DNA from: an uncultured Clostridia bacterium
Lineage (GTDB): Bacteria; Bacillota; Clostridia; TANB77; CAG-508
Length of the DNA: 64,000 nucleotides
Reading direction: 5' to 3'
NCBI GenBank assembly: GCA_947632605.1
Contig: CANRPX010000001.1
Coordinates: forward strand, 116,535-180,534
Translations under genes and position numbers: made by a program
Notes under the pieces: model-generated
Told to the model about the DNA's origin: nothing
What the model saw: the letters and a program-made list of their open reading frames with translations, nothing else
The model's database searches: none
Part shown: in pieces, positions 1,834 to 33,886 of the stretch
Layout: the number at the start of each line of letters is the position of its first letter
Numbering within the stretch: the first letter of the stretch is position 1

Positions 1834-1907
1834 ATTTCAATATGTTTCTGTAAATTACTTTAAAATAAACTTTTATAAAAATGAAAGTAACAGGTTAAAA
1901 TGCTTAA

Positions 1908-1929
1908 GGGGGCCCATAGTAGGACCCCC
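1908..1929 (-). terminator. GC-rich hairpin terminator of foreign gene A
   Basis: gggggcc-catagta-ggaccccc. On the minus strand it is followed by ttaagcatttt, about 40 nt after the stop at 1969. Confidence 0.5.
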
Positions 1930-1968
1930 AGTTTGAGTGTTAACGAGTGACAGATTGAAATTGGTTGA

Positions 1969-2916
1969 TTAGACATTCGCAAAGAATTTGCGAATCGCTG
2001 CAAGAATGCCGCCATGTTCCTTTACGGTAACGTTCCCGTGGGAATCAACGGTGTTGTTGCTTTCCACATTCGTATGCATCGCTGAAAAGTCGACCTTCTC
2101 GAAAGCCTTGCGGATGTTCTCCGGTGTCACTTCGCAGAAGTGGTTATCCGGAGTACAGATCTGTAAGGTGAACGACATTGCATACTTCTCCCAGTCGGGA
2201 GGGGTAATGGTTCGCATCAAGAGGCCACGAACCACATTCTCGGAAACGGACACCGTGAAAGCATAGGGGTGATCCGCACTGTAATGCCCACACGGGGAAA
2301 GGATGATCTGGTCGTCGGGAATCTTGGAGCAGGAAAAACCTTCAAAGGTATACCCAGGGAAGTCCTCCTCAAAGAGCTTCTTGAGAGTCCTAAAAAGGTC
2401 CATCCGGGGATCATATTCCTGCAGTTCATTTTCCCAATTGCCATCTTTGTACATACTGAACGGACAGTTCCTAATGGAGCAGCCATCACAGTTTTCCTTG
2501 GAAGGCATATAGCCAGAAGCTCTGCGGTTCCCACGACAGGACAAAATCTTGAAGTATCTGATTACTTCATCCTGCCGGTTCACGATGTCAAAAGGCTGAT
2601 AGTAGCCACCACCGATCATACTGCCACCACCCCAAAAGTACCCAATGAGCCAGTTGGCTTGGAGGATGTAATCGTGGGCAGGAACTACGCCATTCATGAT
2701 TTTCTCGAGGTCATCCGGATGGATGTCCACAAAGAAAGGTCCACGATAGTGATGGAGAAGCAGGGGAGATCCGGGCAGCGGAGCCTGGGTATAGAAGAAA
2801 CGTCCCTCAGGCGAGATGTGGATGTGGTCAAGGCCGATGTACTGATCGACGATTGCGGAGAGTTCGGTTGCGAACTCCTGGATGTGAATGTTGCTGGCGA
2901 TGTCTTTGCTGTTCAT
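1969..2916 (-). CDS. Hypothetical Cys- and Gly-rich protein (foreign cassette A), 315 aa
   Basis: GC-shifted ORF (28/60 G+C at 2521-2580). ATG at 2914-2916 is preceded by TTAGGAGG. Contains GGGSMIGGGYY and a CDGCSIRNC cluster. No family recognised. Confidence 0.7.
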   Translation of the reverse strand: MNSKDIASNIHIQEFATELSAIVDQYIGLDHIHISPEGRFFYTQAPLPGSPLLLHHYRGPFFVDIHPDDLEKIMNGVVPAHDYILQANWLIGYFWGGGSMIGGGYYQPFDIVNRQDEVIRYFKILSCRGNRRASGYMPSKENCDGCSIRNCPFSMYKDGNWENELQEYDPRMDLFRTLKKLFEEDFPGYTFEGFSCSKIPDDQIILSPCGHYSADHPYAFTVSVSENVVRGLLMRTITPPDWEKYAMSFTLQICTPDNHFCEVTPENIRKAFEKVDFSAMHTNVESNNTVDSHGNVTVKEHGGILAAIRKFFANV

Positions 2917-3083
2917 AATGTAACCTCCTAATTTTGTTTTTTTTGAGAAACAGCTACAATATACCCAATTCAATCTGCATAAATATTAACATTTCAATGT
3001 TCTGTCTCCAAAGAATATCTTTTGATGAAAAAACATAGAGCTGTTAAAACTTACACGAGACTAAATAAGATATACCTATAATT

Positions 3084-3112
3084 ATTATACCATATTTTAC
3101 ATAAAATGTTAA
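3084..3112 (-). promoter_or_regulatory. Sigma-A-type promoter of cassette A
   Basis: Minus-strand TTAACA, 17 nt, TATAAT with extended -10 (TGGTATAAT). Confidence 0.55.
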
Positions 3113-3138
3113 CATTTGTTACAAAAGTATATTTTTAG

Positions 3139-3167
3139 TTGAAAATTCATATATTTTATAGTATAAT
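3139..3167 (+). promoter_or_regulatory. Sigma-A-type promoter of MYG1-like gene (cassette B)
   Basis: TTGAAA, 17 nt, TATAAT. It lies back to back with the cassette A promoter. Confidence 0.55.
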
Positions 3168-3177
3168 GGAAAAAGTA

Positions 3178-3193
3178 TGCTAGATTTCTAGCA
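3178..3193. promoter_or_regulatory. Inverted repeat at the start of the cassette B leader (possible operator)
   Basis: TGCTAGA-tt-TCTAGCA, about 10 nt downstream of the -10 box. Confidence 0.3.
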
Positions 3194-3291
3194 CTTTTAA
3201 TATAACTCCTATTTGCAACAATAGGGTTGACATAGATTGTAAGTTAGTAGTAACAAACAACAACTGAACCAATAAGTAGGAGGAAAAAAAC

Positions 3292-4227
3292 ATGATTATT
3301 GGTGTAGAAAAAACTCGGAATAATCGCCCATTAACTTTCGGAACACATAATGGAATCTTCCATTGCGATGAGGTTATTGGCATAGCGATACTCGAGCTTG
3401 CAAACATGAATACTGATGCGTATGTTGTAAGAACAAGAAACAAGGATGTGCTAAATGGGCTTGATGTAGTAATCGATGTTGGAGGAAAAAAGTACGATCA
3501 CCATCAGGCTGGATTTGATCAAAGAAGATCAACAGGGGAAAAGTATGCTAGTGCTGGTTTGATTTGGCGAGATTTTGCGGAAAAAGCTATTAAAAATGTG
3601 GCAATCGAAGGGAAAATGTCCATTGATGATGATGAAATTAGTGTAGTCAAAGGGCAAATCGATAAGGAAATAATCATTTTTGTCGATATGGAAGACAATG
3701 GAAAAGAAGTTGGCACTCATATATTCAGCTTTATCCCAAGTTTTTACCCTGCGTGGTTTCAAGATCCCGAATATGATGAAGCTTTCATGAAGGTTGAAAG
3801 AATTGTATTTTCGATTATGAGGGAGATTATTAAGGAAAAAATCGTGCAGATTGCAACTCGGAAAGAGATTGAGAAAAAATGCAATTCTGCTAATGATGGA
3901 GTATTAGAAATTCCTGTGCAGACCATGCCTTGGCAAGAGAGTGTAGTCAATTTTAACGAAACACATGCCCAGAAGATAAACTTCGTAATTTTCCCGTATC
4001 CTGATGGAGGTTGGGCGGCACAATGTGTTCCACCATCTATGGAGAAAAAGTTCGAACAGCGCATTCCTTTTCCAAAAAAATGGGCTGGTGGAAATGAAAA
4101 AACCCTGCCCGAAGTTTCCGGAATATCGGATGCAACATTTTGCCATAATGGACGATTTTTTGTGAGAGCAAAAACAAAAGAATCTGTCTTAAAAATGTGC
4201 AAGATAGCATCTAGTGAGTTGCTTTAG
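3292..4227 (+). CDS. MYG1/UPF0160-family metal-dependent hydrolase (DHH superfamily), foreign cassette B
   Basis: N-terminal FGTHNGIFHCDE and YDHHQ motifs typical of MYG1/UPF0160. AGGAGG RBS. G+C above the backbone (29/60 at 3961-4020). Confidence 0.8.
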   Translation: MIIGVEKTRNNRPLTFGTHNGIFHCDEVIGIAILELANMNTDAYVVRTRNKDVLNGLDVVIDVGGKKYDHHQAGFDQRRSTGEKYASAGLIWRDFAEKAIKNVAIEGKMSIDDDEISVVKGQIDKEIIIFVDMEDNGKEVGTHIFSFIPSFYPAWFQDPEYDEAFMKVERIVFSIMREIIKEKIVQIATRKEIEKKCNSANDGVLEIPVQTMPWQESVVNFNETHAQKINFVIFPYPDGGWAAQCVPPSMEKKFEQRIPFPKKWAGGNEKTLPEVSGISDATFCHNGRFFVRAKTKESVLKMCKIASSELL

Positions 4228-4242
4228 GCCAACAAATTATGT

Positions 4243-4272
4243 GACAGGCGAGTGGTGTACCGCTCGCCTGTC
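4243..4272 (+). terminator. GC-rich hairpin terminator of cassette B
   Basis: gacaggcgag-N10-ctcgcctgtc followed by ttcttaatttt. Confidence 0.6.
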
Positions 4273-4296
4273 TTCTTAATTTTATTATAAAAAAAT

Positions 4297-5157
4297 TTAA
4301 ATCTTATCAGTTATAAAAATAGTAACATATTTTATGTTTAGAGATCTATGTTGTAATATATGTTTTTTTACATCTTTTTCAATTAAAGTTGCTTCTTTTA
4401 ATGTCAAATTTGGATTTAATACTAAAGTTAATTGTAACTTGTAATAAGAACCATATTTTATTAAAGTTATTTTCAAATTATTTATATTTTCTTCTTTTAA
4501 TATGACTTCTTTAACACGATTAATTAATTCTTCATTTTCTTCAACTTCACCAATGACAGATAGAGAATTTTCAACAATAATATTATAAGATGTTTTAAAT
4601 ACAATTATACCTATTAAAACAGATCCAACAATATCTGAATATTTTAAAATAGGAAGCTGTTTTGTAAATTGTAAAAGAATAGTTATAATCATTACACCAA
4701 TTGTAGAATATAAATCAGCTGAAGATTCTTTTACAGAAGTTATTAATAGTTGACTATGAGTTTTTGTTCCAACTTTATGCATAATTAAAATAGCAACTAA
4801 TTTTAAAAGAAAAACAATTATTAAAAGTACTAAAACTGAAATAGGAGGGGTAATAGTTTCTTTTCCAAAAGCATTTACTATAATAAATATTGCAAGAGCT
4901 AGAAGTATAATTCCAACAAATAAATTGGTTAGATATTCAACTTTTCCAAATCCAAAAGGATGACTTTTTGTTGGCTTCTTTTTTGTTATTTTTTCTGTTC
5001 CAATACAAACTACATCTGTGAAAAAATCACTAAATGTATGCATTCCATCTGCAAATAAAGAACTTAATCCGAAAAACATACCTCCAAATAATTTAATAAT
5101 TGAAATTATTAAATTATTTATCATACTATAAGTTAATACTTTAGATTCCTCTTTCAT
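4297..5157 (-). CDS. Cation diffusion facilitator (CDF) family transporter
   Basis: Six TM segments, HTFSDFFTD and SSADLYS motifs, C-terminal cytoplasmic domain. Confidence 0.8.
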   Translation of the reverse strand: MKEESKVLTYSMINNLIISIIKLFGGMFFGLSSLFADGMHTFSDFFTDVVCIGTEKITKKKPTKSHPFGFGKVEYLTNLFVGIILLALAIFIIVNAFGKETITPPISVLVLLIIVFLLKLVAILIMHKVGTKTHSQLLITSVKESSADLYSTIGVMIITILLQFTKQLPILKYSDIVGSVLIGIIVFKTSYNIIVENSLSVIGEVEENEELINRVKEVILKEENINNLKITLIKYGSYYKLQLTLVLNPNLTLKEATLIEKDVKKHILQHRSLNIKYVTIFITDKI

Positions 5158-5317
5158 ATATTTTCCTCCTAAATTGATTTGTTTAATTATATTATAAAAA
5201 AAGCTAAAATTCTATATTGTCAAATAAATGTAATGAAAAATAAATAAAATTGATTTTATTGTTAATAATACTTTGATGTGTTATAATATGAAAAAATAAA
5301 AAAGGAATAATATTATT

Positions 5318-5791
5318 ATGAATATAGGGTTTTATGCTGGAAGTTTTGATCCATTTACAAATGGTCATTTGCATGTAATAAAAAGATCAGAAAAATTATT
5401 TGATAAAGTTGTTGTAGGTATTGGAATACATCCAAGCAAAACTAGAAGATATAACAATGAAATAATGAAAAATGCTATTAAAGAAGTATTAAAACGAGAA
5501 AAAATAAAAAATGTTGAAGTAATTACTTATGATAATCTTTCAGTTGATGCAGCAAAATCACATAATGCTAATTTTCTTATTCGTGGTATTAGAAATGGAA
5601 TGGATTATGATTATGAAGAAAATCTTGCTTCAATAAATGAAGAAATTTCAGGGTTAGATACTATTTATATAAGAGCAGGAAGATTAGGAAATATAAGTTC
5701 AAGTATTGTTATGGAGCTTGTGAGAAATGGAAAAGATGTTTCAAAATATGTTCCAAAAGAAATTCTAAAAATAATAAATGAAGATAATTAA
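5318..5791 (+). CDS. coaD: Phosphopantetheine adenylyltransferase-like nucleotidyltransferase
   Basis: GSFDPFTNGH nucleotidyltransferase motif. Size about 157 aa. Confidence 0.7.
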   Translation: MNIGFYAGSFDPFTNGHLHVIKRSEKLFDKVVVGIGIHPSKTRRYNNEIMKNAIKEVLKREKIKNVEVITYDNLSVDAAKSHNANFLIRGIRNGMDYDYEENLASINEEISGLDTIYIRAGRLGNISSSIVMELVRNGKDVSKYVPKEILKIINEDN

Positions 5792-5807
5792 AAAAGTAGG
5801 AGAAATC

Positions 5808-6587
5808 CTACTTTAAATTTTTTTCTAAAACTTTTATTACTTCATTATGAACAATACCATTGCTAATAATTGCACCATTTATATTAGTATCATATCTTTG
5901 TTCATTGCCAAATAAATCTGTAACTTTTCCACCAGCTTCTTCAACGATAACTTTAACTGCTGCTATATCGCAGTTTTTGTGCTTAGTACCGGGAAAAATT
6001 GATAAAGAAAAATCTCCATTAGCAATACACATACATGCTCTTATGACACTTCCAATGCTAACAAAATAAGAGTTTTTGCTAAGTTCTGATATTGTACTAT
6101 ATATATTATAATCAGATTTTGACCACATATCGTAATTGCAGACTGTTTTTATATTATTTAATTCATAATCATTTACATGTATTTTTTCATTATTTCTATA
6201 AGCACCTTTACCTTTAATTGCAGAATAAAGATTGTCTGTAAATGGATCATAAACAACACCAATTAAAGGAGCACCATCAATTACTAATGCAAGAGAAAAA
6301 ACAGCTACTGGTATATGTCTTGCATACATAGCAGTACCATCAACTGGATCACATACCCACACATAATTAGATTTACCAAATTGTTCTTCTTCACCATCAA
6401 CTGAATGTGTAGGAAAATTTTCTTTTACTTTTTTTACTAAAAAACTATTAATTTCTTTATCTGCTTTTGTGACAATTGTTTGATCAAATTTATAATCAGC
6501 ACCATTATTTTCTTTAAAATATTTATGCATAATTTTTCCAGCTTCAATAGCTATTTCTTTAGCAAATTTTAAATATTCTTCTTCCAT
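5808..6587 (-). CDS. Inositol monophosphatase family protein
   Basis: WVCDPVDGT and GEEE metal-binding motifs. Confidence 0.8.
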   Translation of the reverse strand: MEEEYLKFAKEIAIEAGKIMHKYFKENNGADYKFDQTIVTKADKEINSFLVKKVKENFPTHSVDGEEEQFGKSNYVWVCDPVDGTAMYARHIPVAVFSLALVIDGAPLIGVVYDPFTDNLYSAIKGKGAYRNNEKIHVNDYELNNIKTVCNYDMWSKSDYNIYSTISELSKNSYFVSIGSVIRACMCIANGDFSLSIFPGTKHKNCDIAAVKVIVEEAGGKVTDLFGNEQRYDTNINGAIISNGIVHNEVIKVLEKNLK

Positions 6588-6716
6588 ATTTTCTCCTTAA
6601 TAATAATTAACTTTAAAATATAAATTTATTATAACGTTAATTTATTGATGTTTCAATAATCTTGTGTTAAAATAATATAGCAGAATTGTAAGATTAAATA
6701 TAAAAGGAATGAAAAT

Positions 6717-7157
6717 ATGGAAATAATTTCAAACTCTGAAGAAGAAACAATTGAACTTGGAAAAAAAGTAGCTAAAAATTTAGAAAAAGGAAATATAATT
6801 ATTCTTTCTGGGAATTTAGGTTCTGGTAAGACTAAATTCACTGAAGGAGTATTAACTTATTTTGGATTACAAAATGAAATTTCTAGCCCAACATTTACTA
6901 TTGTTAATGAATATAATGCTAATAATATTAATATATATCATTTTGATGTTTATAGATTGAGTGATGTTGATGAATTTGAAGCAATTGGTGGAGAAGAATA
7001 TTTTGAAAAAGGAATTTGCATAATAGAATGGGGAGAATTGATAGAACCAATACTTCCTGAAAATTATGTAAAAATTACATTTTCTAGAAACTTAGAAAAT
7101 GAAAATACAAGAAATATTAAAATAGATTGTTTTGGAGATATTAATTTAGATTTATAA
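6717..7157 (+). CDS. tsaE: tRNA t6A37 biosynthesis ATPase TsaE
   Basis: LSGNLGSGKT P-loop, SPTFTIVNEY motif, about 146 aa. Confidence 0.85.
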   Translation: MEIISNSEEETIELGKKVAKNLEKGNIIILSGNLGSGKTKFTEGVLTYFGLQNEISSPTFTIVNEYNANNINIYHFDVYRLSDVDEFEAIGGEEYFEKGICIIEWGELIEPILPENYVKITFSRNLENENTRNIKIDCFGDINLDL

Positions 7158-7162
7158 AAAAA

Positions 7163-7192
7163 GCAAGGGACCAGTTAGGTCCCTGCTTTTTT
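7163..7192. terminator. GC-rich bidirectional hairpin between tsaE and cassette C
   Basis: gcaagggacc-agtta-ggtccctgc flanked by an A-run and a T-run. The stop codon of the minus-strand gene lies in the loop. Confidence 0.6.
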
Positions 7193-7732
7193 CTGATATA
7201 ACACAGTGAGATCGAATTGGATACTCGACCGGATGAAGAAATGGAATTGCTTTGTTTCGTAATGATATCCTGTGCAAAACTGATTGGCATGTTTCTCCCA
7301 GTCAAAATCTGCACGAATCAAAGTAAATCTATAAATAGAATCATTGTGCAAATTGAGATAAGAAGAATAACGAGTTGTAATAATTGTCGATTGATAGTGT
7401 GCCAAAAAATGTGCCAGCTCAAATGGATCGTTTGACACTTTAAATATGGCTGTGATGTTTTCGGGAACAGGTAAGGAAAAGGACTCTCCGATGTGGAGCT
7501 TCGTATAGATTTCCATAAAACCCGATATTCCGTCAATGTCAAATTTTTCCTTTAAAAATGAATCAAAAACATTCTTAGGAGCAGAGACACTCACATTTAA
7601 GGATGAATTATCAATTGTTTGCAATTTGTCTACAGTTTCACATTTGGATAAGTTACGATGGTCACGTTCGGTTTCTTCAAAAGGATTTTCCAAATTAGTT
7701 AAAATATGGAAAATATTAGAATCTTCATTCAT
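7175..7732 (-). CDS. Hypothetical protein (foreign cassette C), about 185 aa
   Basis: G+C above the backbone (24/60 at 7261-7320). AAGGAGG lies 7 nt before the second ATG (7730-7732). No family recognised. The last six codons are encoded by the terminator arm and T-run. Confidence 0.6.
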   Translation of the reverse strand: MNEDSNIFHILTNLENPFEETERDHRNLSKCETVDKLQTIDNSSLNVSVSAPKNVFDSFLKEKFDIDGISGFMEIYTKLHIGESFSLPVPENITAIFKVSNDPFELAHFLAHYQSTIITTRYSSYLNLHNDSIYRFTLIRADFDWEKHANQFCTGYHYETKQFHFFIRSSIQFDLTVLYQKKAGT

Positions 7733-7800
7733 ACGCATACCTCCTTTTAAGTTTATAGTTCGAATGAAGTGTTGTGTTTAGAACACGGTGTTACAAAATT

Positions 7801-7829
7801 ATATTAACATAAAATCGACATAAAATCAA
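7801..7829 (-). promoter_or_regulatory. Putative promoter of cassette C
   Basis: Minus-strand TTGATT, 17 nt, TAATAT. Confidence 0.45.
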
Positions 7830-7889
7830 ATTATGGTTTACAAATTAGATAAAATATTATAAAATATTACAGTAATTGGAGGAATAATA

Positions 7890-19773: not shown

Positions 19774-19802
19774 TTGTGTATTTTAGAAAATAATGGTATA
19801 AT
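19774..19802 (+). promoter_or_regulatory. Promoter of the large ncRNA
   Basis: TTGTGT, 17 nt, TATAAT with extended -10 TGG. Confidence 0.55.
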
Positions 19803-19808
19803 ATTATT

Positions 19809-20370
19809 GTTGGTGCACTATTCTAGTGTATACTCCTGTTATGAGGGTGGGCCTAAAAATCTACTAAAAAGTATTATCAGTCGAAGTTTTTCGGAGTACT
19901 GCGCGTTACGCCCAGTTGTGCGTGGCTTTGGAAAAAAGATTTTAGGATAGTTTATAATGGCATATAAATGATTCCTGATTTCATTGAGACTTATTCATTT
20001 GAATAGGTAAAACCATATAGATAATAATATGGTGGTAATGACTGTCTTGAGTGATTTATTGGAATTAATTCGATAATCATAAAATTAATTTGGCCAAATT
20101 GATTTTATGATTGAATTATGAAACTTAGATTGCAAAAGGGACTAATAACAGGCTAGGATATTAAAAGAAAATTTCTAGAGTGTTTGCTTAGAATAAAATA
20201 AGCATGGAAACTCGGGGATTAAGGTACGGATTTAAGTGGTGATCTGGCGACATTTTGAAAAAAATGTGGAGCTTTTAAATGGAAACAGCTTTTTAGTAAT
20301 AAAAAGTAATGCTTCGAGAAACTCTGCTAGACCTAAACCGTAAAGTTTACTCGAGTTTTCACCAATATAC
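19809..20370 (+). ncRNA. Large structured non-coding RNA, OLE-like (tentative)
   Basis: About 560 nt with no ORF and G+C above the backbone. The 5' TTGGTG pairs with the 3' CACCAA. Contains a 17-bp hairpin at 20077-20110 and several smaller hairpins. It has its own promoter and lies directly upstream of a small 4-TM protein, as for OLE/oapA. Confidence 0.5.
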
Positions 20371-20409
20371 TTATAAAAAACGATAACTTAATTTGGAGAA
20401 AAATATAAT

Positions 20410-20940
20410 ATGAAAGAAAAACAAAAAGGTAATAATAATTCGTGGGTAATAGTAATAGCTATTACCACATTTATTTTATCATTATTTTTTTCGTTTGTAT
20501 CAAATACAGCTATATCAAAGCTTAATATAATAGCAGGATTAATTGTTTTAATAATAGTAATTTTAATTGGTGTAGTATTTGATTTAATAGGTGTCGCTGT
20601 TACGGTTGCAAATGAAGAAGATTTTCATGCACAAGCTAGTAAAAAAATAAAAGGTGCAAAAACATCTATAAAAATGATAAGAAATTCAGCAAAAGTATCT
20701 AACTTTTGTGCTGATGTAATTGGAGATATATGTGGAGTATTAAGTGGTGCAATAAGTGCGATGATTGCTCTTAAAATTACTCAAAATTATGGAGTAAATG
20801 AAAATATACAAATAATTTTTAGTGCAATAGTCGCATCTATTACAGTAGGAGGAAAAGCAATAACAAAAGAAATTGCAAAAAGAAATTCAACAAAGATAGT
20901 TACAATAATAAGTAAATTTGTTTCTTTTGGAGAAAAATAA
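20410..20940 (+). CDS. oapA: Small 4-TM membrane protein, OapA-like (tentative)
   Basis: 176 aa with four predicted TM helices. Position immediately after the large ncRNA. Confidence 0.5.
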   Translation: MKEKQKGNNNSWVIVIAITTFILSLFFSFVSNTAISKLNIIAGLIVLIIVILIGVVFDLIGVAVTVANEEDFHAQASKKIKGAKTSIKMIRNSAKVSNFCADVIGDICGVLSGAISAMIALKITQNYGVNENIQIIFSAIVASITVGGKAITKEIAKRNSTKIVTIISKFVSFGEK

Positions 20941-20957
20941 TTTATATAAATATGAAA

Positions 20958-20981
20958 ATGACCGCCAAATGAGGCGGTCAT
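20958..20981. terminator. GC-rich bidirectional hairpin between the oapA-like gene and cassette D
   Basis: atgaccgcc-aaatga-ggcggtcat. Confidence 0.55.
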
Positions 20982-21054
20982 TACCTTTATATAAGACTAA
21001 TGGAATCTGTTAATAAAGGATTTAGAAGGTAGAATCGGTGGAAACTTGTTTCCT

Positions 21055-21705
21055 TTACAGGATTACGTGTGTCTCCACAAATTCATCGTGCCCGACGCGG
21101 TACACTCCCTTGGTAGTGATGATGAGATAGTCGCCGATTTGAAGTTGAGTGCTTTCAGCCTCGCCATTCTCATCAGTTTCCATCCACTCATCAACGCAGG
21201 CAGTGATGCCAGAATCGTAGAGCTCCTTGGTGACCTCGATGCAGCGGCGTTCTTCAGAGGCAGTGGTGACCAGGAGAAGATCTTTCTTCATGTTCGCGAA
21301 CATATCAGCGAGCATTTTCTTATCTGTCTCGTCGGCGATACCACTCAGGATGGTGCAGAGGTTGATGAGACCTTCGGCCGAATTGGTGCCTACGACTTTG
21401 ACGTCTTTGGCGCCGGAAACTTTGGAGAATTTCCAGCAATAGCAATCGGGCCGGCCGGACATCAGAACCTTGCCACCGATGACACGAAGTACCGTCTGGA
21501 AAACGGCTTCATCGTAGATGTTACCGGAGGGCTGCTCCTTGGTGCTGACACACTGCTTGAAGATGAGACCCATGAGGCCGAGATCCGACCACTTGGGAAA
21601 AACGATGTTTTGCATCTCAAGCTTCAGGCAGTCCCGCTGGCAGTCCAGCTCAGCGCTCTTGTTGATGATCTCTTGGGTGACTTGCTGTTTGTTTAATTTA
21701 GCCAT
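21055..21705 (-). CDS. Hypothetical protein (foreign cassette D), 216 aa
   Basis: 31/60 G+C at 21061-21120. TTAGGAGG lies 8 nt before the ATG. No family recognised. Confidence 0.65.
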   Translation of the reverse strand: MAKLNKQQVTQEIINKSAELDCQRDCLKLEMQNIVFPKWSDLGLMGLIFKQCVSTKEQPSGNIYDEAVFQTVLRVIGGKVLMSGRPDCYCWKFSKVSGAKDVKVVGTNSAEGLINLCTILSGIADETDKKMLADMFANMKKDLLLVTTASEERRCIEVTKELYDSGITACVDEWMETDENGEAESTQLQIGDYLIITTKGVYRVGHDEFVETHVIL

Positions 21706-21754
21706 GAAATATACCTCCTAAAATTGTCTAAAATTGTTAATGGCTTACAACATA

Positions 21755-21783
21755 ATTATACCATAATTTACATAAAAATACAA
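21755..21783 (-). promoter_or_regulatory. Promoter of cassette D
   Basis: Minus-strand TTGTAT, 17 nt, TATAAT with extended -10 TGG. Confidence 0.5.
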
Positions 21784-21879: not shown

Positions 21880-22897
21880 ATGGTTTTAAGTTATGATGAT
21901 TTAAATAAAAGTATTGATTCTGGATTAAATTCAATATATTTATTATATGGTAATGAACAATACTTAATTGAAAATGCAATTAATAGAATAAAGAAAAAAT
22001 TTCGGAGAAAAATTATTGGGAATAAATTATGTTTTAATTGATGAATCAAATTTAGAAGATATTATTCCTAATATTGAAATGCCTGCATTTGGATATGATA
22101 AAAAACTTATAATAATAAAAAATACAAGTTTATTTAAAAAAGATGGAAGAAAAAAATCAGAAACACCGATTCAAGAAAAAATTTTAGATTTTATTAAAAA
22201 TAATATTGATATTATAAAAGAATCTGTAGTTTTAGTATTTGTAAATCAAGAAGTAGACAAAAATACTGTTTTTGAAGAAATTGAAAAAAATGGAATAGTT
22301 TGTATGATAGAAGAATTAAAACCATATCAATTAGTAAAAAAACTAAAACAAATATGTTCTTTATATAAAGTAAATGTAGATGATGTAACTTTAAATTATT
22401 TAGTTGAAACATCTGGAACAAGCCTTCAAAATTTAATAAATGAAATAAGAAAATTAATTGAATATGCAGGAGAAAATGGAAAAATAACAATTGATGATGT
22501 GAATAATCTAGCAATAAAACAAATGGAAAGTGTTATTTTTGAACTTACAGATAACTTAGCAATAAGAAAAATAGATAAATCATTAGAAATTTTAGATAAT
22601 TTAATTTATCAAAAAGAACCAATACAAAAAATATTAATAACTCTATATAATCATTTTAAAAAAATATATTTATGTTTAATAGCAGTAGAAGAAAATAAAG
22701 ATATAGTATTTTCTTTATCTTTAAAACCAAATCAAACATTTTTAGTTTCAAAATATAAAAAACAAGCATCTTACTTTAAAAAGAATGAATTAAGAAAAAT
22801 TTTGAAAGAATTTATAGAATTAGATTATAATTCAAAAAATGGAAAAATAGATGTGGATATTGGATTAAGAAGTATATTGTGTAATTATTGTAGTTAA
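21880..22897 (+). pseudogene. holA: DNA polymerase III delta subunit, interrupted by a 1-nt frameshift near 22003
   Basis: ATG at 21880 with a GGAG RBS reads MVLSYDDLNKSI...KKKF and then stops. Deleting the c in tttCgga restores ...KFGEKLLGINYVLIDESN, which joins the ORF at 22016. Confidence 0.7.
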
Positions 22898-24236: not shown

Positions 24237-24291
24237 GATAGATTTAAATTTTAGAAATTTAAAAAAAAAAATAATTTAGGAGGAAAATTTT

Positions 24292-25791: not shown

Positions 25792-25814
25792 TAAATGTAT
25801 TTATAAAATGCAGA

Positions 25815-25841
25815 AGAGCAGGCATTGCACCTGCTCTTTTT
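25815..25841. terminator. GC-rich bidirectional hairpin between the guaB-like gene and cassette E
   Basis: agagcagg-cattgca-cctgctct followed by a T-run. Confidence 0.6.
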
Positions 25842-25851
25842 AAACTGCTTT

Positions 25852-26280
25852 TCAATCGTCAACCAAGACGAAAATGAACGGCTCTTCGGAATATTCTTTG
25901 GTAATGTCCTCTAAGCTAACCTTTGCGGCAGGTTCCTTGTCATCGGGTTTGTGCTCGAAGCTCCCGTCAGGGTTTCTCCTTGCAACATGGAAGTCATCAT
26001 ATTCCATACCCCAAAGGGAACGATACGCGTACCAGCCCCAGAGCCAGAATGCGGTTTTGCCGTTGGTTTCTTCGATGGAACTTACCTGCCGAACACGGAT
26101 GCCGTATCGTTTCAGAGTTTCCACGAAGGAGTTAACAGGACTGTTATCAAAGTACCGACCTGTGTCGGGATCGCGGTAGCGGTCGAGGACTACAACCTCT
26201 TCAACACCGATTGCAAACCCGAGGCAGTTAAATTTTGAGATGTTCATTGTCTTGTTTGCTTGGTCTGCTGTAAAAAACAT
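25852..26280 (-). CDS. Hypothetical protein (foreign cassette E), 142 aa
   Basis: 30/60 G+C at 25981-26040. AAGGAGG lies 9 nt before the ATG at 26278-26280. No family recognised. Confidence 0.65.
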   Translation of the reverse strand: MFFTADQANKTMNISKFNCLGFAIGVEEVVVLDRYRDPDTGRYFDNSPVNSFVETLKRYGIRVRQVSSIEETNGKTAFWLWGWYAYRSLWGMEYDDFHVARRNPDGSFEHKPDDKEPAAKVSLEDITKEYSEEPFIFVLVDD

Positions 26281-26339
26281 ACGTAATAACCTCCTTGCCA
26301 TAGTGGCGATGCGTGTTTTGTTAAAAAGCTTACATAATA

Positions 26340-26368
26340 ATTATACCATATTTTATATATAAAATCAA
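26340..26368 (-). promoter_or_regulatory. Promoter of cassette E
   Basis: Minus-strand TTGATT, 17 nt, TATAAT with extended -10 TGG. Confidence 0.5.
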
Positions 26369-27688: not shown

Positions 27689-27751
27689 AGATACTAATTT
27701 AAACAAATATATAGTAATAACTATTTGTTTAAAATTAGTATCTTTTTTTTT
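27689..27751 (+). terminator. Strong rho-independent terminator
   Basis: Stem of about 20 bp (agatactaatttaaacaaata / tatttgtttaaaattagtatct) followed by T9. Confidence 0.7.
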
Positions 27752-27813
27752 GCTTTTTTATTGAAAATATAAAAAAAATAATATATTATTATCACGTAGA
27801 AAGGTAATTAAAA

Positions 27814-29403
27814 ATGAATAATAATAACAATATTTTCAAATATATTTTTGCTATAGTTGTAGTCTTTTTAGTTGCATATACATTGTATGTAATTTTTCAA
27901 AGTAAAGCAGATAATTCAGATACTAATCTTGATCAAACATCTACTTTATCTAATATTCAAACTGATTTAAGATTGTCAATTGCACAGATAGATACTATAA
28001 ATCCATTACTTACAAACAATAGAAATGTTCAAGAAATTACAAAAATTATTTATGATCCATTAGTTACTTTAAATGAAAATTATAAATTAGAGTACTGCTT
28101 AGCAGAAGAAATTGCAAAGTCAGATGATTTAAATTATGTGGTAAAGCTAAGAAGTGGTGTTGTTTGGGAAAATAACACAAATTTTACAGTTGATGATGTA
28201 ATATATACAATTGAATTGATACAAAATGGTGTAAGTCCAATATATTCTGAAAATTTAAGAAAAGTAGAATCTGTAGAAGCAATAGATAGTAATACTTTAA
28301 AAATCAAACTTATAGAACCAGAACCATTTTTTGAATATAATTTAACATTTCCTATAATGTGTAAAAGCTATTATGAAGGAGAAGATTTTGTATCAAGTCA
28401 AAAAGCTCCGATAGGAACTGGAATGTTCAAAATTGTGGAATATAGTAGTAATGTTATAAAACTTGTTCCAAATGGAAATTATTGGAATACAAACAGAAAA
28501 CCAATGGCAACAGAAATAAATATTAATTTATATAATTCTATTGGAGAATGTTATTCCGCTTTTAAAAATGGAGAAATAGATATATTATCTGTAAAAATAA
28601 ATGATGTAGAGAACTATATTGGAAATTTGGGATATAATAAAATTGAATATAAATCTAGAGAGTATGACTTTTTAGCATTTAATACTCAAAATGAATTATT
28701 ATCAGATCCAATTGTTAGAAAAGCAATTAGCTTATCAATTGATAAAAATAATATTGTAGCAACTTGTTTAGGAAAAGGGTATACACCATCAAATTTTAGT
28801 TTAGATATGGGAAATTGGTTGTATACAAAAGATTTAAATATTTCTACTGACACAGAACAAGCTGCACAACTTTTAATTAACAATGGATGGGAGAGAACTA
28901 GTAATTCTTGGATAAAAAGAACAGATGGAAAAACATTAAGATTAGAATTTTCATTAACAGTAAATACAAATAATCAGTCAAGAGTAAATGTAGCAGAAAA
29001 TATAAAAAATCAATTAGCTAATTTAGGAATTCCAGTATCAATAAATTATTTGTCAGCAGATAATTATAATGAAGCAATCGGAAATAGAAATTTTGATTCA
29101 GCATTAATTGGTATAAAATTAGGATATTCTCCAAGTTTAGAAACTTTTTTTGGAAATGGAAATTTAGCAAATTATAATAACAATGAAGTTGCGGAAATTA
29201 TGAATATTGTAGCAAATACAACAGATGAAAAAACCTTATATGAAAAATATTCTAGATTATATGATATTTATTTAGAAGAAGCACCATATATTGGTTTGTA
29301 TAGAAATACAGATGTACTAGTTTATAACCAAAGTTTAGTTGGTAATATTACAGCTAATACTTTTAATATTTTTCATAATATAGAAAAATGGTATAGAAGA
29401 TAA
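27814..29403 (+). CDS. ABC transporter substrate-binding protein, peptide/nickel (family 5) type
   Basis: N-terminal anchor. Size and motifs are typical of SBP family 5. Confidence 0.7.
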   Translation: MNNNNNIFKYIFAIVVVFLVAYTLYVIFQSKADNSDTNLDQTSTLSNIQTDLRLSIAQIDTINPLLTNNRNVQEITKIIYDPLVTLNENYKLEYCLAEEIAKSDDLNYVVKLRSGVVWENNTNFTVDDVIYTIELIQNGVSPIYSENLRKVESVEAIDSNTLKIKLIEPEPFFEYNLTFPIMCKSYYEGEDFVSSQKAPIGTGMFKIVEYSSNVIKLVPNGNYWNTNRKPMATEININLYNSIGECYSAFKNGEIDILSVKINDVENYIGNLGYNKIEYKSREYDFLAFNTQNELLSDPIVRKAISLSIDKNNIVATCLGKGYTPSNFSLDMGNWLYTKDLNISTDTEQAAQLLINNGWERTSNSWIKRTDGKTLRLEFSLTVNTNNQSRVNVAENIKNQLANLGIPVSINYLSADNYNEAIGNRNFDSALIGIKLGYSPSLETFFGNGNLANYNNNEVAEIMNIVANTTDEKTLYEKYSRLYDIYLEEAPYIGLYRNTDVLVYNQSLVGNITANTFNIFHNIEKWYRR

Positions 29404-29411
29404 AAAAGGTA

Positions 29412-29439
29412 TTGACAAAAGAAAAATTAGAGATATAAT
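29412..29439 (+). promoter_or_regulatory. recA promoter
   Basis: TTGACA, 16 nt, TATAAT. Confidence 0.55.
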
Positions 29440-29441
29440 AA

Positions 29442-29453
29442 GAACATAAGTTT
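29442..29453. promoter_or_regulatory. LexA (Cheo) box-like site
   Basis: GAAC-ATAA-GTTT immediately after the -10. One mismatch to GAAC-N4-GTTC. Confidence 0.45.
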
Positions 29454-29484
29454 TACAAACAAATTTTTGTTAGGAGGAAATTAA

Positions 29485-30543
29485 ATGGGAGAGAATTCAG
29501 AGAAACGAAAGGCATTAGATGCTGCAATGAGTCAAATAGAAAAACAATTTGGAAAAGGTTCTGTAATGAAATTAGGAGATTATAAATCAATGAATGTTGA
29601 AGCAATTTCAACAGGAGCTTTAAATTTAGATATAGCTTTAGGAATTGGTGGTATACCAAGAGGAAGAATAGTAGAAATTTATGGACCAGAATCTTCTGGT
29701 AAAACAACACTTGCTTTACATGCTGTTGCAGAAGCTCAAAAATTAGGAGGAGAGGCAGCATTTATAGATGCAGAGCATGCATTAGATCCATCTTATGCAA
29801 AAAAGATAGGTGTTGATATAGACAATTTAATTGTTTCACAACCAGATACTGGTGAACAAGCTTTAGAAATAGCAGAAGCATTAATAAGAAGTGGAGCAAT
29901 AGATATAGTTGTTGTAGACTCAGTAGCTGCTTTAGTACCTAAAGCAGAAATAGATGGAGATATGGGTGATGCACATGTTGGATTACAAGCAAGATTAATG
30001 TCACAAGCTTTAAGAAAATTAGCAGGAACAATAAATAAAACAAATGCAATAATAATATTTATTAATCAATTAAGAGAAAAAGTTGGTGTAATGTTTGGAA
30101 ATCCAGAAACAACAGCTGGCGGTAGAGCTTTAAAATATTATGCATCTGTAAGAATGGATATAAGAAGAGTAGAATCTATAAAACAAGATGGAGAAGTAAT
30201 TGGAAATAGAACTAGAGTTAAAGTTGTAAAAAATAAAGTTGCTCCACCATTTAGAGAGGCAGAATTTGATATAATATATGGACAAGGTATATCTAAAGAA
30301 GGAACAGTTTTAGATTTAGCAGTAAGTCTAGATATTATAGAAAAAAGTGGATCTTGGTTTAGTTATAATGGAGAAAAAATTGCACAAGGTCGTGAAAATG
30401 TAAAAAAATATCTTTTAGATAATCCTAAATTTATGGAAGATATTGAGAAAAAGGTAAGAGATAACTTTAACAAAGCATTTGAAAATGCTCTAGTTGAAGA
30501 TGAAGAAACTGATACAGAAGAAGATAAAGAACCAGAAGAATAA
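29485..30543 (+). CDS. recA: Recombinase RecA
   Basis: GPESSGKTT Walker A and a full-length RecA pattern. Confidence 0.95.
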
Positions 30544-30561
30544 TTTTATAAAATAAATTAG

Positions 30562-30598
30562 TTATGGGTTGAATAATTAAAAAATGTTCAACCCATAA
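30562..30598 (+). terminator. Hairpin terminator after recA
   Basis: ttatgggttgaa-N13-ttcaacccataa. Confidence 0.5.
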
Positions 30599-30635
30599 AT
30601 TTAATTTATAAAATAATTATATTTTAGGAGCAGTT

Positions 30636-30986
30636 ATGAAAGAAGAAATAAATTTAGAAGAAGAGTTTAATAAATTAGATGAAAATAGTCCATTGAGAAA
30701 ATTTCAAGAATATACAGAGAAAATGATAAAAGTAAGAGGTTTTGATAATGAAACACCCGAAGATGTAGTTCTTCTTTTAACAGAAGAGTTAGGAGAAGTA
30801 GCAAAAGAAGTTAGAAAATCTACTAGTATAAAAATGGATGTTAATAGTTCAAAAGAACAAAATCTAGATAAAGAAATTGCAGATCTTTTTAATATGCTTA
30901 TGTCTTTATGTGTAGTTACAAAAGTAGATTTATTTAATGCTTTTAAAAATAAAGAAGAAATAAATTTGAAAAGAAAGTGGAATTAA
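30636..30986 (+). CDS. MazG-like nucleotide pyrophosphohydrolase
   Basis: LTEELGEVAKEV and EIADLF helical motifs. 116 aa. Confidence 0.6.
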   Translation: MKEEINLEEEFNKLDENSPLRKFQEYTEKMIKVRGFDNETPEDVVLLLTEELGEVAKEVRKSTSIKMDVNSSKEQNLDKEIADLFNMLMSLCVVTKVDLFNAFKNKEEINLKRKWN

Positions 30987-30992
30987 ATTGTT

Positions 30993-31463
30993 ATGGAATA
31001 CATGAGCAAAGAGAAATTTGAAGAGGCAGAAAAACTAGATAAATTAAAAAATAAGATGCTAAAGTATATAATGTATAAAAAAAGAACAGAAGCAGAAGTA
31101 AGACAAAAGTTTTCAGAAGAAGATGAAAATATGCTTGAAGATAGTATAGAATACTTGAAAGAATTAAACTATATAAATGATAAAGAATATGTAGTAAGAG
31201 CAGTAAATGAATTTATGGCATTAAGAAATTTATCTATAAAAGAAATATCTTATAAAATTTTTCAAAAAGGTATAGAAAAAAATTTAATAGATGATTATAT
31301 TTGCAAAAATAAAGACATTATGTTAGAATATGAAATAGCTTCTGCAAAGGCTATTATACTAAAGAAACAGAGAGATTTAGAAGAACAAGAAATAAAAAAT
31401 TATTTATACAAAAAAGGCTATATGAGTGAAAGTATTAGTATAGCTTTTGATGATATAAAATAA
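30993..31463 (+). CDS. recX: Recombination regulator RecX
   Basis: Position after recA. Helical repeat protein with a YIMYKKRTEAEVRQK-type motif. Confidence 0.7.
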   Translation: MEYMSKEKFEEAEKLDKLKNKMLKYIMYKKRTEAEVRQKFSEEDENMLEDSIEYLKELNYINDKEYVVRAVNEFMALRNLSIKEISYKIFQKGIEKNLIDDYICKNKDIMLEYEIASAKAIILKKQRDLEEQEIKNYLYKKGYMSESISIAFDDIK

Positions 31464-31475
31464 AGTAGGTAATAT

Positions 31476-32234
31476 ATGAATAATAAAGTAATAACACTTG
31501 AATCAAAAAAATATGAATTAAAATTAGAAAATTTTGAAGGTCCATTAGACTTATTATGCTACTTAATAGATAAAAATAAAATGGATATTTATAAAGTAAA
31601 CATTTCTGATATTGCAGATCAATATATTAAATATTTAAAAGAACAAGAAGAATTAAATCTTGAAATTGCTAGTGAATTTTTAGTAATGGCATCAACATTA
31701 CTTCTAATAAAATCAAAAGGATTATTACCAAAAGAAATTGATGATGAAGCAGAAATAACAGAAGAAGAATTAATAAGAAGAATTATTGAATATAAGCAAT
31801 ATAAAGAAATTAGTAAAAAATTTAAAGAACAAATGGCAATATTTTCTGGAAGATTTTATAAAATGCCAGATAGAATTGAACTTCCAAAACAAGAATTAGA
31901 AAAAGAATTTTCTGCTGAAGATATAATAGAAAGATATAGATTATTAGTTCAGAAAAACGAAGAAAAGAGAAATAACGATGCAAAGAATATTGAGAAAATA
32001 GCCGTTTATGATACATTTTCTGTTGCAGATAAAGTAAAAGATATATTTAGAGAATTAATAAAAAGACCAAAATTTGTTTTTAGCAAATTATTTTCATTAA
32101 GAGAAAAACCAAAAGCAGAAGTTGTTACAGCTTTTTCAGGTGTATTAGAATTAAGTAGAAGAAATAAAATAACAGCAGAGCAAAAGGAATTATTTGGAGA
32201 CATAATTATTTCTAAAAGAAAAAAAGATAATTAA
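31476..32234 (+). CDS. scpA: Segregation and condensation protein A
   Basis: FEGPLDLLCYLI motif near the N-terminus. Confidence 0.8.
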   Translation: MNNKVITLESKKYELKLENFEGPLDLLCYLIDKNKMDIYKVNISDIADQYIKYLKEQEELNLEIASEFLVMASTLLLIKSKGLLPKEIDDEAEITEEELIRRIIEYKQYKEISKKFKEQMAIFSGRFYKMPDRIELPKQELEKEFSAEDIIERYRLLVQKNEEKRNNDAKNIEKIAVYDTFSVADKVKDIFRELIKRPKFVFSKLFSLREKPKAEVVTAFSGVLELSRRNKITAEQKELFGDIIISKRKKDN

Positions 32235-32242
32235 TTTTAAAA

Positions 32243-32270
32243 AGTATAAGAAAACTCTTATACTTTTTTT
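32243..32270 (+). terminator. Rho-independent terminator after scpA
   Basis: agtataaga-aaac-tcttatact followed by T7. Confidence 0.6.
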
Positions 32271-32279
32271 ATATAAAAA

Positions 32280-32308
32280 TTGATTTTATTTACATAATAT
32301 GTTACAAT
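32280..32308 (+). promoter_or_regulatory. Putative promoter of cassette F
   Basis: TTGATT, 17 nt, TACAAT. Confidence 0.45.
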
Positions 32309-32369
32309 TGAATATGTAACTAGTTGTTCTAAAAATGGCAGAATTGCCAATAAAGAAAGGGGAGTCTCT

Positions 32370-33767
32370 ATGAAGAGAACAGAGAAACGGTTACTTATCA
32401 ACAGTTGCTTAGCATTTATTATGATTTTGACTTTTTGCTTAGCAACCACCACAGCTTATGCTACTACCACCATTAGCAATATTAGTATTAAGGTGGAGAA
32501 AAATGACTGGGAGCAGACCAACAATCCGGGAATAACAGTTACCGGAACAGGTTACAAAATCTCAGATGAAAGCATAAGTTGGAGTAAAAATGTTTCTGAC
32601 TGTTATCCGTCAGAGCAAATAGTTGTGACGATGCAACTTGAAACTTTAGAGGGCTATTCATTTAAGGATACCTTGAAAAAAAGCTCTTTTAAGATAACGA
32701 ACGCAAGCATTGAAAGTTTTGAATATTCAGCTGGAAATATTTTACTTAGTCTCTCTTATGATGTTCGCGGTATCGCAAGCGAACCAGAAGACTTATATTG
32801 GGATGGTTCCAAAGCAAGATGGGATATGCCCGATGAATTGAGAGATAAAGTAAGATATGACGTGAAAATCGTTGGAAAAAATGGACGTAATTCCACTGTT
32901 GTTGCTGAAAATATTTCGGACCGGAAAGTAAATTTGTATGATTGGCTTGCATCAGATCCTTATTATTGGGAAGATTATGTTCGCTTTAGAGTAAGAGCAA
33001 TTCCCAAAACAAAATACGAGGGTTTGATAAAATCATCCAGTTATGCAGAATCAGAAGATTTTTCAGATTGGGACATAATAGCTTACAATTATGGAACTAG
33101 TCATAATTCTGGTAGTAACAATTATTTTCCGGAAGAAAATCCTAATTACAATCAGTGGTGGTGGGAGTCACCGTATCCATCGTATACTAGAACAGAAGGG
33201 TGGCAATACTTAAATGGAATTTGGTATTATATAAAGGATTCCAAGTATGTTACTAATAAGTTTTATGATGTCGATGGTGTAAGATATTATTTTGATAGTA
33301 CTGGTAGAATGGTAACTGGCTGGTACAAAATAAATAATGTCTGGTATCTATTTGATTCCTCAGGAGCTATGCTTAAAAATCGTTGGGTTTTCATCTCAAA
33401 TAATTGGTATTGGCTCCAATCCGACGGTAAAATGAAAACAGGCTGGTTTGACTGGGCTGGAAATACATACTACCTTAGACAATCTTCTGGTGAAATGCTT
33501 ACTGGATGGCAAATTATTAATGGTGTATGGTATTACTTTAGCTCAGAAAAAGGTGGTGCATTAGCAAGATCAACGGCTATTCCATCGGCAGATGGACGTT
33601 TCTGGTATTTTATAAGAGATGATGGTGCATTACAAACTGGCTGGATTGATCCAGATGGATATGGCTGGATGTATGTTGATCCAGAAACAGGTTGTTATCA
33701 AACAGGAGAAAAACAGATTGGTGGTATATGGCACAATTTCAACCAATTTGGAAGACTGGTTTGGTAA
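32370..33767 (+). CDS. Secreted protein with C-terminal cell-wall/choline-binding repeats (foreign cassette F)
   Basis: Signal peptide, unknown N-terminal half, then about nine ~20-aa repeats of the GW..ING.WYYF..SG.M.TGW type from 33198. G+C above the backbone (23/60 at 32521-32580). Confidence 0.75.
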   Translation: MKRTEKRLLINSCLAFIMILTFCLATTTAYATTTISNISIKVEKNDWEQTNNPGITVTGTGYKISDESISWSKNVSDCYPSEQIVVTMQLETLEGYSFKDTLKKSSFKITNASIESFEYSAGNILLSLSYDVRGIASEPEDLYWDGSKARWDMPDELRDKVRYDVKIVGKNGRNSTVVAENISDRKVNLYDWLASDPYYWEDYVRFRVRAIPKTKYEGLIKSSSYAESEDFSDWDIIAYNYGTSHNSGSNNYFPEENPNYNQWWWESPYPSYTRTEGWQYLNGIWYYIKDSKYVTNKFYDVDGVRYYFDSTGRMVTGWYKINNVWYLFDSSGAMLKNRWVFISNNWYWLQSDGKMKTGWFDWAGNTYYLRQSSGEMLTGWQIINGVWYYFSSEKGGALARSTAIPSADGRFWYFIRDDGALQTGWIDPDGYGWMYVDPETGCYQTGEKQIGGIWHNFNQFGRLVW

Positions 33768-33787
33768 AAAATATGTAATTAAAAAAA

Positions 33788-33812
33788 GGGCTTCGGAGTG
33801 TTTCCGGAGCCC
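33788..33812 (+). terminator. GC-rich hairpin after cassette F
   Basis: gggcttcgg-agtgttt-ccggagccc. The T-run is weak. Confidence 0.45.
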
Positions 33813-33886
33813 TTTCCCCATATAAAAATAAATGAATAAATATAAAAAATAAAAAGATAATAATAATTAATATAAGTAGGTGTGAT

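Follow-up and report, generated by a model that had tools for sequence, protein, structure and literature searches.

We analysed a 64,000-nt stretch of DNA (hereafter the window) from an uncultured Clostridia bacterium (TANB77; CAG-508; GenBank assembly GCA_947632605.1, contig CANRPX010000001.1, positions 116,535-180,534 of the forward strand), in which six single-gene expression cassettes, named A to F, depart sharply in composition from their AT-rich surroundings. The six cassettes are natural and partly long-resident. The account that we consider probable is that they are autonomous accessory cassettes in gaps flanked by core genes, inherited vertically and exchanged by recombination in these flanks. 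They resemble the phage 'morons' of Hendrix and colleagues, which are reportedly autonomous promoter-gene-terminator units lying between conserved phage genes. What makes the cassettes notable is a promoter used clade-wide, the persistent compositional foreignness of old residents and protein models without fold neighbours.

The mean GC content of the window is 26.3%. As reference we used 58 backbone open reading frames (ORFs) across the whole 64 kb, which have a GC of 0.254 +/- 0.037 and a GC at third codon positions (GC3) of 0.096 +/- 0.024, with a maximum of 0.163. The coding sequences (CDSs) of the cassettes are A (1969-2916, minus strand; GC 0.50, GC3 0.62), B (3292-4227, plus strand; 0.39 and 0.33), C (7175-7732, minus strand; 0.35 and 0.34), D (21055-21705, minus strand; 0.52 and 0.67), E (25852-26280, minus strand; 0.48 and 0.55) and F (32370-33767, plus strand; 0.37 and 0.30). 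Their GC3 z-scores against the backbone are 8.3 to 23.4, and their tetranucleotide likelihood z-scores, from a leave-one-out third-order Markov model of the backbone, are -4.9 to -11.0. A preliminary description of this DNA had called these six CDSs GC-rich compositional outliers, and all six are extreme outliers in both tests. Its CDS coordinates were also right, as 1969-2916, 7175-7732 and 25852-26280 translate exactly to public proteins. In 200-nt windows, long runs with GC of at least 0.36 are found at the six cassettes only; elsewhere this level is reached in short pieces within conserved genes, e.g. spoVS and recA, and the region from 36 to 64 kb has no GC peak comparable to the cassettes. 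The comparison of codon usage with backbone genes, also proposed earlier, showed that A, D and E freely use CTC, CTG, CGC and CGG, which have 0 uses in 7877 backbone codons. Isoleucine in D is encoded 15 times by ATC and never by ATT or ATA. The codon usage of A, D and E is like that of moderate-GC Firmicutes.

A promoter-like site, a ribosome-binding site (RBS) and a hairpin were found in all six cassettes. Cassette A (1908-3112, minus strand) has its hairpin at 1908-1929, a CDS of 315 amino acids (aa), a leader of about 170 nt (2917-3083) and a promoter at 3084-3112 (TTAACA-17-TGgTATAAT). Cassette B (3139-4272, plus strand) runs from a promoter-like site at 3139-3167 to a terminator with a 13-bp stem at 4243-4272. 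Cassette C (7158-7873, minus strand), whose ends were defined from the empty site in L004 (L-numbers denote compared loci from relatives or other samples), has a bidirectional terminator at 7166-7184 that overlaps the stop codon, a CDS of 185 aa and a promoter at 7801-7829 (TTGATT-17-TAATAT). In cassette D (20957-21783, minus strand) a bidirectional terminator (20957-20982) and a 3' untranslated region (UTR) at 20983-21054 follow a CDS of 216 aa, with the promoter at 21755-21783 (TTGTAT-17-TGgTATAAT), and cassette E (25814-26368, minus strand) consists of a terminator at 25814-25838, a CDS of 142 aa and a promoter at 26340-26368 (TTGATT-17-TGgTATAAT). Cassette F (32279-33812, plus strand) extends from a promoter-like site at 32279-32307 (TTGATT-17-TACAAT) to a hairpin at 33788-33812. 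The neighbours are tsaE and tsaB for C, the OLE (ornate large extremophilic) RNA with oapA, and holA for D, an IMPDH-family gene and ymdB for E, and scpA and a ytfI-like ORF for F.

Most of this layout had been described correctly before. The RBS is AGGAGG upstream of A-E and GGGGAG upstream of F, the gaps are indeed bounded by core genes kept in relatives, and four of the six cassettes (A, C, D and E) lie on the minus strand and oppose the local gene flow. The claim that each unit has a hairpin terminator stands for B, C, D and E (4 of 6), whose hairpins pass a formal terminator scan, and does not stand in that form for A and F, where the hairpins are GC-rich and lack a canonical T-tract. Similarly, the claim that each unit has its own promoter is borne out by a shared motif for A, D and E and for B, C and F by position only. 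A generic sigma-70 consensus scan showed no enrichment over shuffles in this AT-rich DNA; the promoter claim therefore rests on position, plus the shared motif for A, D and E.

This common motif, TTTATGTAAAWTATGGTATAAT, spans 22-29 nt and has 3 matches in the window as against 0.04 expected. They lie on the minus strand at 3084-3105 (A), 21755-21776 (D) and 26340-26361 (E, with 2 mismatches). A repeat finder recovered the motif independently as repeat family D6, and between D and E the similarity reaches into the leader (41 nt at 83% identity). Its form is that of a sigma-A promoter with an extended -10, TTG-17-TGnTATAAT, and we infer promoter activity from this; the lineage-wide promoter consensus is TTG-N3-TTTTTATGTAAAwTATGGTATAAT. 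With a promoter position weight matrix B, C and F do not score, and the next-best match in the window is the promoter of the OLE RNA. The 'set' is a mixed one, a common promoter being confined to A, D and E.

A 23-base pattern of the motif was searched against the one-genome-per-species GTDB representatives and gave 92 loci in about 80 species, where the chance expectation is estimated at about 1. Nearly all are metagenome-assembled genomes (MAGs) of uncultured Clostridia with 25-30% GC, and the hosts are rabbit, human, goat, sheep, chicken and mouse guts. It may be noted that the -35 TTG stands at the right distance in these loci, though it is outside the search pattern. Taken over 80 AT-rich promoter loci, 34 of the 78 ORFs downstream of the motif have a GC of at least 0.34 (44%), compared to 71 of 568 other ORFs (12.5%; odds ratio 5.4, p = 5e-10). 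Also, of 48 promoter-marked units 17 are lone genes that oppose both of their neighbours, compared to 23 of the 276 backbone ORFs (odds ratio 6.0, p = 4e-6). In 27 cases the promoter match precedes an ordinary AT-rich ORF. The proteins downstream of the motif are mostly unrelated to each other, and 31 of the 42 GC-shifted ones have no Pfam family; the remaining ones are a miscellany that includes NUDIX, a Tad8-like protein, a C-C bond lyase and an NTPase, with few defence or phage families. Within the promoter, TTTATGTAAA may be a factor-binding stretch. A PerR/Fur-type operator, TATAATnATTATAA, overlapping the -10 was considered as a general feature and rejected, as it occurs in A-family promoters only and is no commoner across the 92 loci than after any TATAAT.

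A case of presence and absence is seen at the tsaE|tsaB site. In L004, a strain 99.0-99.6% identical over 13 kb, these two genes are 18 nt apart and C is absent, compared to 716 nt in the same gap of the window; this is the kind of empty site that the preliminary description had suggested looking for. About 25 nt, the final tsaE codons among them, are replaced at the junction; no target-site duplication is seen, and L004 retains a hairpin-like remnant (GACTAGCTTAGGTC against GACCAGTTAGGTC). C homologues with 46-64% identity are present at tsaE|tsaB in L139, L140-144 and L145, in each case antisense and with a conserved promoter. The last of these is about 81-85% identical to the window; in L139 and L140-144 the TsaB and TsaE proteins are 66-71% identical and synonymous sites are saturated. 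Since homologues occupy the same site in such distant relatives, the lack of C in L004 may be a loss and not an absence before gain. The C protein had no match in any search run (NCBIfam, PDB sequence). In L140-L144 (4600-5259) the tsaE|tsaB cassette holds two genes, the C homologue and a DUF7694 protein. DUF7694 and DUF7689, the latter being a weak match of E, are neighbouring Pfam accessions, and no literature was found on either.

Cassette D provides evidence of long residence. It is present at the orthologous oapA|holA site in L005 and L019 (the latter a rabbit-gut MAG) with about 87% nucleotide identity, and after the same FtsX-like gene in L072, a human-gut MAG with about 75% identity. 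The synonymous divergence (dS) of D is 0.39-0.47 and that of the neighbouring FtsX-like gene is 0.47, so that D has travelled with its flanks. The window allele is a mosaic, L019-like over the first ~30 residues and L005-like over the remainder, and it has 5 private third-position changes as against ~20 expected from the backbone. Third-position changes are balanced in L019 (13 from G/C to A/T and 16 in reverse) and have a net G/C to A/T direction in L005 (27 vs 8). Such polarised counts were rejected as proof of a GC3 equilibrium, because of confounding from the recombinant D allele and the saturated outgroup. Two clades make up the D family, which was analysed with 99 representatives: one from moderate-GC hosts and a deep one from AT-rich hosts. 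The former, a sister clade, is found in hosts with 42-48% GC and has a GC3 of 0.58-0.78 and different promoters; in the latter GC3 ranges from 0.69 to 0.21, a spread that looks like amelioration at different stages. Most D members keep a high GC3 despite 40-50% protein divergence. The D model has a predicted local distance difference test (pLDDT) score of 95.7 and no PDB neighbour in Foldseek; the only match, a marginal one in BFVD (template modelling score ~0.5), is to a 'glutaredoxin' of an algal virus with unnamed function.

Several other observations were made at the D site. A full-length OLE RNA lies at 19794-20381 on the plus strand (Rfam RF01071, 259.7 bits), and the ORF that had been called oapA-like (20410-20940, plus strand) does follow it, with D immediately downstream; in L072, D comes directly after the FtsX-like gene without OLE or oapA between them. 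The D 3'UTR (20983-21054, minus strand; ~70 nt) is conserved in L019, L005 and L072 and contains the stem CCTTTAT/ATAAAGG, and the stem of the bidirectional terminator after it shows compensatory changes (gaccGcc/ggCggtc vs gaccAcc/ggTggtc). D homologues of moderate-GC hosts (L128, L130 and L131) are preceded not by the promoter of the AT-rich clade but by a conserved hairpin-rich leader, gcgactcgttctg...cagaacgagtcgc, which may be a structured regulatory RNA. On the opposite strand of D a reading frame stays open along the entire gene (216 aa), and it is even longer in L019 and L095. An antisense gene was nevertheless rejected, because the open frame follows from the lack of TTA, CTA and TCA codons under GC-rich codon usage, and zero such codons is not significant when ~1.6 are expected in D. 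On the other side of D, holA (~21880-22897) is split relative to L019 by an additional T in the run AAAAAATTT, and the same sequence is present in an independent ENA assembly (L007). This essential-looking gene for the DNA polymerase III delta subunit may be either truly frameshifted or a pseudogene, or it may contain a site that needs frameshifting.

At the E site, L005 carries a divergent allele of the same family with 62% aa identity, a proportion of synonymous differences (pS) of 0.83 and a GC of 0.38. The flanking IMPDH-family gene and ymdB have a dS of only 0.34-0.47 in the same comparison. The allele thus predates the species split by a wide margin, and a replacement is implied. The E protein has the invariant motifs NCLxF...DDFHV...EHKPD, and its DUF7689 match is below the Pfam cut-off. 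B belongs to the MYG1/UPF0160 family (Pfam PF03690, E = 4.8e-63). It is present together with A in the 99% identical strain L004, and L145 has neither of the two beyond the cation-efflux gene. F has a signal-peptide-like N-terminus and choline/cell-wall-binding repeats (Pfam Choline_bind_1/3) and is predicted to be secreted. The reverse of the C case is seen in the species-level relative L005, where an extra antisense cassette (3074-3477) lies between the IMPDH-family and aminotransferase genes, with a TTTATGGTATAAT promoter before a 75-aa hydrophobic ORF of GC3 0.28; in the window these genes are separated by a spacer of only 55 nt (24237-24291). Both here and at tsaE|tsaB, therefore, cassettes are found between genes that are adjacent in relatives.

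The A family comprises 81 clusters of homologues, almost all on short contigs, and was sampled in 8 contexts with 34-58% aa identity to the window copy. No member was found in a GC-rich genome among these eight, and one homologue adjoins a Mob_Pre relaxase. The protein has invariant HYRG and WGGG motifs and four Cys, and its model (pLDDT 84.7) has no PDB neighbour in Foldseek. A long 5' leader is characteristic of the family (window 2917-3083, minus strand; L096 4814-4970; L111 ~4826-5000). Its first ~100 nt are near-invariant between copies whose proteins are only ~50% identical, and it contains GGAGA followed by a mini-ORF of 3-6 codons. A second leader type is common to L015, L016 and L095. 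The A leader could be an unrecognised attenuator or riboregulator; the search of cassette leaders and UTRs in Rfam gave nothing significant. For A, C, D and E, NCBIfam and sequence searches of the PDB returned nothing. This agrees with the earlier statement that four of the six products, and the N-terminal half of F, could not be assigned to a family: A, C, D and E have no confident family and the N-terminal half of F has none. None of the six proteins matched a PADLOC defence family, and of 42 promoter-linked cassette proteins 3 did.

Signals of mobility were compared with known systems. The repeat search found no flanking direct or inverted repeats and no ends like those of miniature inverted-repeat transposable elements (MITEs) at the cassettes, the promoter of A, D and E being the only sequence that links them. 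No integrase or transposase Pfam families are present on neighbouring genes in the gene tables of the window and related loci. Both results agree with what the preliminary description had seen in the window. Insertion sequences (IS), transposons and MITEs were rejected as a class, as the cassette ends have no terminal repeats and the C junction is a ~25-nt replacement without duplication. Phage origin was also rejected. A tblastn search of 50,697 phage records found neither A nor D. IMG/VR contained no relative of the A family, and its 2.9 million viral contigs no match to the promoter pattern. PHROGs gave nothing for A-E beyond a chance-level match; the neighbours are tsaE/tsaB, holA, IMPDH, ymdB, recA and scpA. 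The cassettes are like phage morons in being single genes with their own promoter and terminator between genes adjacent in relatives, with deviating composition and no recombinase or repeats of their own. They differ in lying between chromosomal housekeeping genes, in that many unrelated cassettes share one promoter and in that several persist across species or genera. Integron cassettes are likewise single-gene units with a structured 3' element and a heterogeneous cargo, most of it without known function. The cassettes here were rejected as members of that class, as they have no attC consensus, no intI among the neighbours and no array; their hairpins are unrelated in sequence, they have their own promoters and they are dispersed over 32 kb.

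It is established that hotspots can lack mobile elements and be diversified through double recombination in the core genes on either side (PMC5635113). The present sites resemble them in that the flanks are core genes, content and alleles vary among relatives (C missing from L004, another E allele, neither A nor B in L145, an extra cassette in L005) and no mobility genes were found, and in that the mechanism would need no more than RecA-type housekeeping recombination. They are unlike such hotspots in having one gene per site, rarely two, and in that the same family stays for long (C and D) in place of rapid diverse turnover. Putative mobile promoters are highly similar promoters before non-homologous genes, within or between genomes (Nijveen, Matus-Garcia and van Passel 2012, PMC3575422). 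A near-identical promoter before non-homologous genes is also what we see for A, D and E and at the 92 loci; however, the similarity between cassettes is short (22-41 nt) and tied to one clade of AT-rich gut Clostridia, it is associated with monocistronic genes of foreign composition that are often antisense, and it is kept across homologues only 34% identical. No single known system among morons, core-flanked hotspots and mobile promoters covers all the features.

According to the account that we prefer, units with moron anatomy (promoter, strong RBS, one CDS and hairpin) would be placed in chromosomal gaps between core operons of a lineage with ~26% GC. Their coding regions would come from families with the composition of moderate-GC Firmicutes, as is shown for D by the hosts of its sister clade. 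Once placed, a cassette would pass vertically, and homologous recombination in the conserved flanking genes would cause its loss, its replacement by a divergent allele or its recombination between species. Antisense placement and bidirectional terminators would insulate its expression from the neighbours, and the lineage-wide sigma-A extended -10 promoter would drive many unrelated cassettes. Exchange of this kind would account for the lack of an integrase, a transposase and flanking repeats. Both recombination as the exchange route and donor composition as the origin of the GC shift are inferred; the mosaic D and the old E allele suggest exchange. The promoter-RBS-CDS-terminator layout and the sharp composition steps do look like synthetic parts, and the preliminary description had accordingly offered laboratory engineering and an assembly or in-silico chimera as readings. 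Yet identical copies of all six proteins are encoded on 4-8 contigs from NCBI, ENA and Logan, the junctions are reproduced at 100% identity on contigs from several samples and independent assemblers, F has the same context in other samples of the species, diverged orthologues are found in wild relatives from other hosts, the promoter recurs at 92 loci, and D diverges together with its flanks. Within the limits of assembled data the artefact is already refuted, and we give it practically no weight. The remaining reading of that description, a dispersed accessory gene set acquired by a recombinase-independent route, comes closest and stands as regards foreign composition, autonomy, lack of mobile genes and the variation at C, E and D; the cassettes are not all recent, however, and are heterogeneous. 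Mobilisation in trans by site-specific or single-strand transposition (integron-like, or like the PATE elements of IS200/IS605), with the 5' motif and 3' hairpin as ends, would fit cassettes that begin with a conserved sequence, finish with a hairpin and show no target duplication, as well as the strand or orientation bias and the repeated use of the same intergenic sites. We regard it as very improbable, as the six hairpins are unrelated in sequence, the motif is a textbook TTG-17-TGnTATAAT promoter correctly placed before the RBS, the cassette boundaries lie ~45 nt beyond the motif with no shared end, no common target sequence was seen, neither the window nor the neighbouring genes in the gene tables examined include a recombinase, and the E and D patterns look like homologous exchange. 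A recent and independent horizontal gene transfer (HGT) of each gene from GC-richer gut bacteria, with the GC shift as a time stamp, is favoured by the Firmicutes-like codon usage of A, D and E, by the D relatives in hosts with 42-48% GC, by the relaxase beside one A homologue and by the lack of A and B in the 81-85% relative. Equally shifted orthologues at the same positions, which the preliminary description had held to mark ordinary old residents, were found for C, D and E in relatives down to ~66-75% identity, so that these three are old residents or old hotspots, and D co-diverges with the backbone. For them recent HGT is largely refuted by this synteny. The absence of A from GC-rich genomes in the sampled contexts counts against it too, and since distant homologues have the same AT-rich promoter, the unit transferred had its source in AT-rich hosts already. 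Overall we hold recent HGT to be improbable.

Several results weigh against vertical inheritance with flank recombination as set out above, some of them in favour of a further alternative. All 8 contexts of the A family have a GC-rich gene (GC3 0.42-0.62) between AT-rich flanks with the same promoter, and C keeps a GC3 of 0.23-0.34 at its site in lineages where synonymous sites of the backbone are saturated; a simple foreign origin with slow amelioration fits this persistence poorly. Neither heterogeneous origin nor turnover accounts for a promoter that, with its spacer, is better conserved than the proteins downstream of it, and its staying with A and D homologues over long divergence points to co-inheritance or constraint as much as to mobility. 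At tsaE|tsaB, given the ~25-nt replacement and the remnant in L004, the event may be either a gain or a loss, and single-nucleotide polymorphism density around the indel shows no rise beyond the junction itself in the few genomes compared. The alternative is a self-maintaining class in which a GC-rich coding composition and a standard promoter are kept by selection or biased gene conversion. A common regulator might bind the conserved spacer, the accessory genes might form a regulon, or codons that the host otherwise leaves unused might set translation or mRNA stability. Besides the persistence in A and C, it would account for the balanced third-position changes of D in L019, for a spacer conserved before unrelated genes in ~80 species and for the heavy use of CTC, CTG, CGC and CGG. 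On the other hand, some D members in AT-rich hosts are nearly ameliorated (GC3 0.21-0.27), D in L005 has lost G/C on balance, the mosaic allele confounds the polarisation, the palindrome resembling a PerR box is confined to A-family promoters and 27 promoter matches lie before ordinary AT-rich ORFs. We therefore consider this class unlikely, though less so than the other alternatives. Slow amelioration with repeated re-import of alleles, biased gene conversion and selection on the coding sequence are candidate causes of the persisting GC shift.

Compositional outliers are routinely read as recent transfer, and in raw sequence they can resemble engineering. The present outliers lie at orthologous sites in diverged relatives, with D co-diverging with its flanks and a promoter that is better conserved than the proteins. 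The shared promoter is a simple handle, through the 23-base pattern, to catalogue accessory cassettes in uncultured gut Clostridia, and it could serve as an expression element in organisms without genetic tools. The cassettes also include protein families with confidently predicted folds and no known structural relatives. A tentative and more far-reaching possibility, in our opinion a doubtful one, is that these are clade-wide 'chromosomal morons', antisense between core operons, with a standard promoter that probably doubles as a regulatory site and a GC-rich composition that is actively maintained, and that A and D are new folds. The maintenance would come from selection acting on DNA or mRNA, from translation with codons that the host leaves unused elsewhere, or from biased gene conversion in the course of frequent exchange. 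If the GC shift is maintained and not fading, amelioration clocks and GC-based island callers would mislead for very AT-rich genomes, and compositional foreignness would be a stable, functional property of an accessory-gene system.

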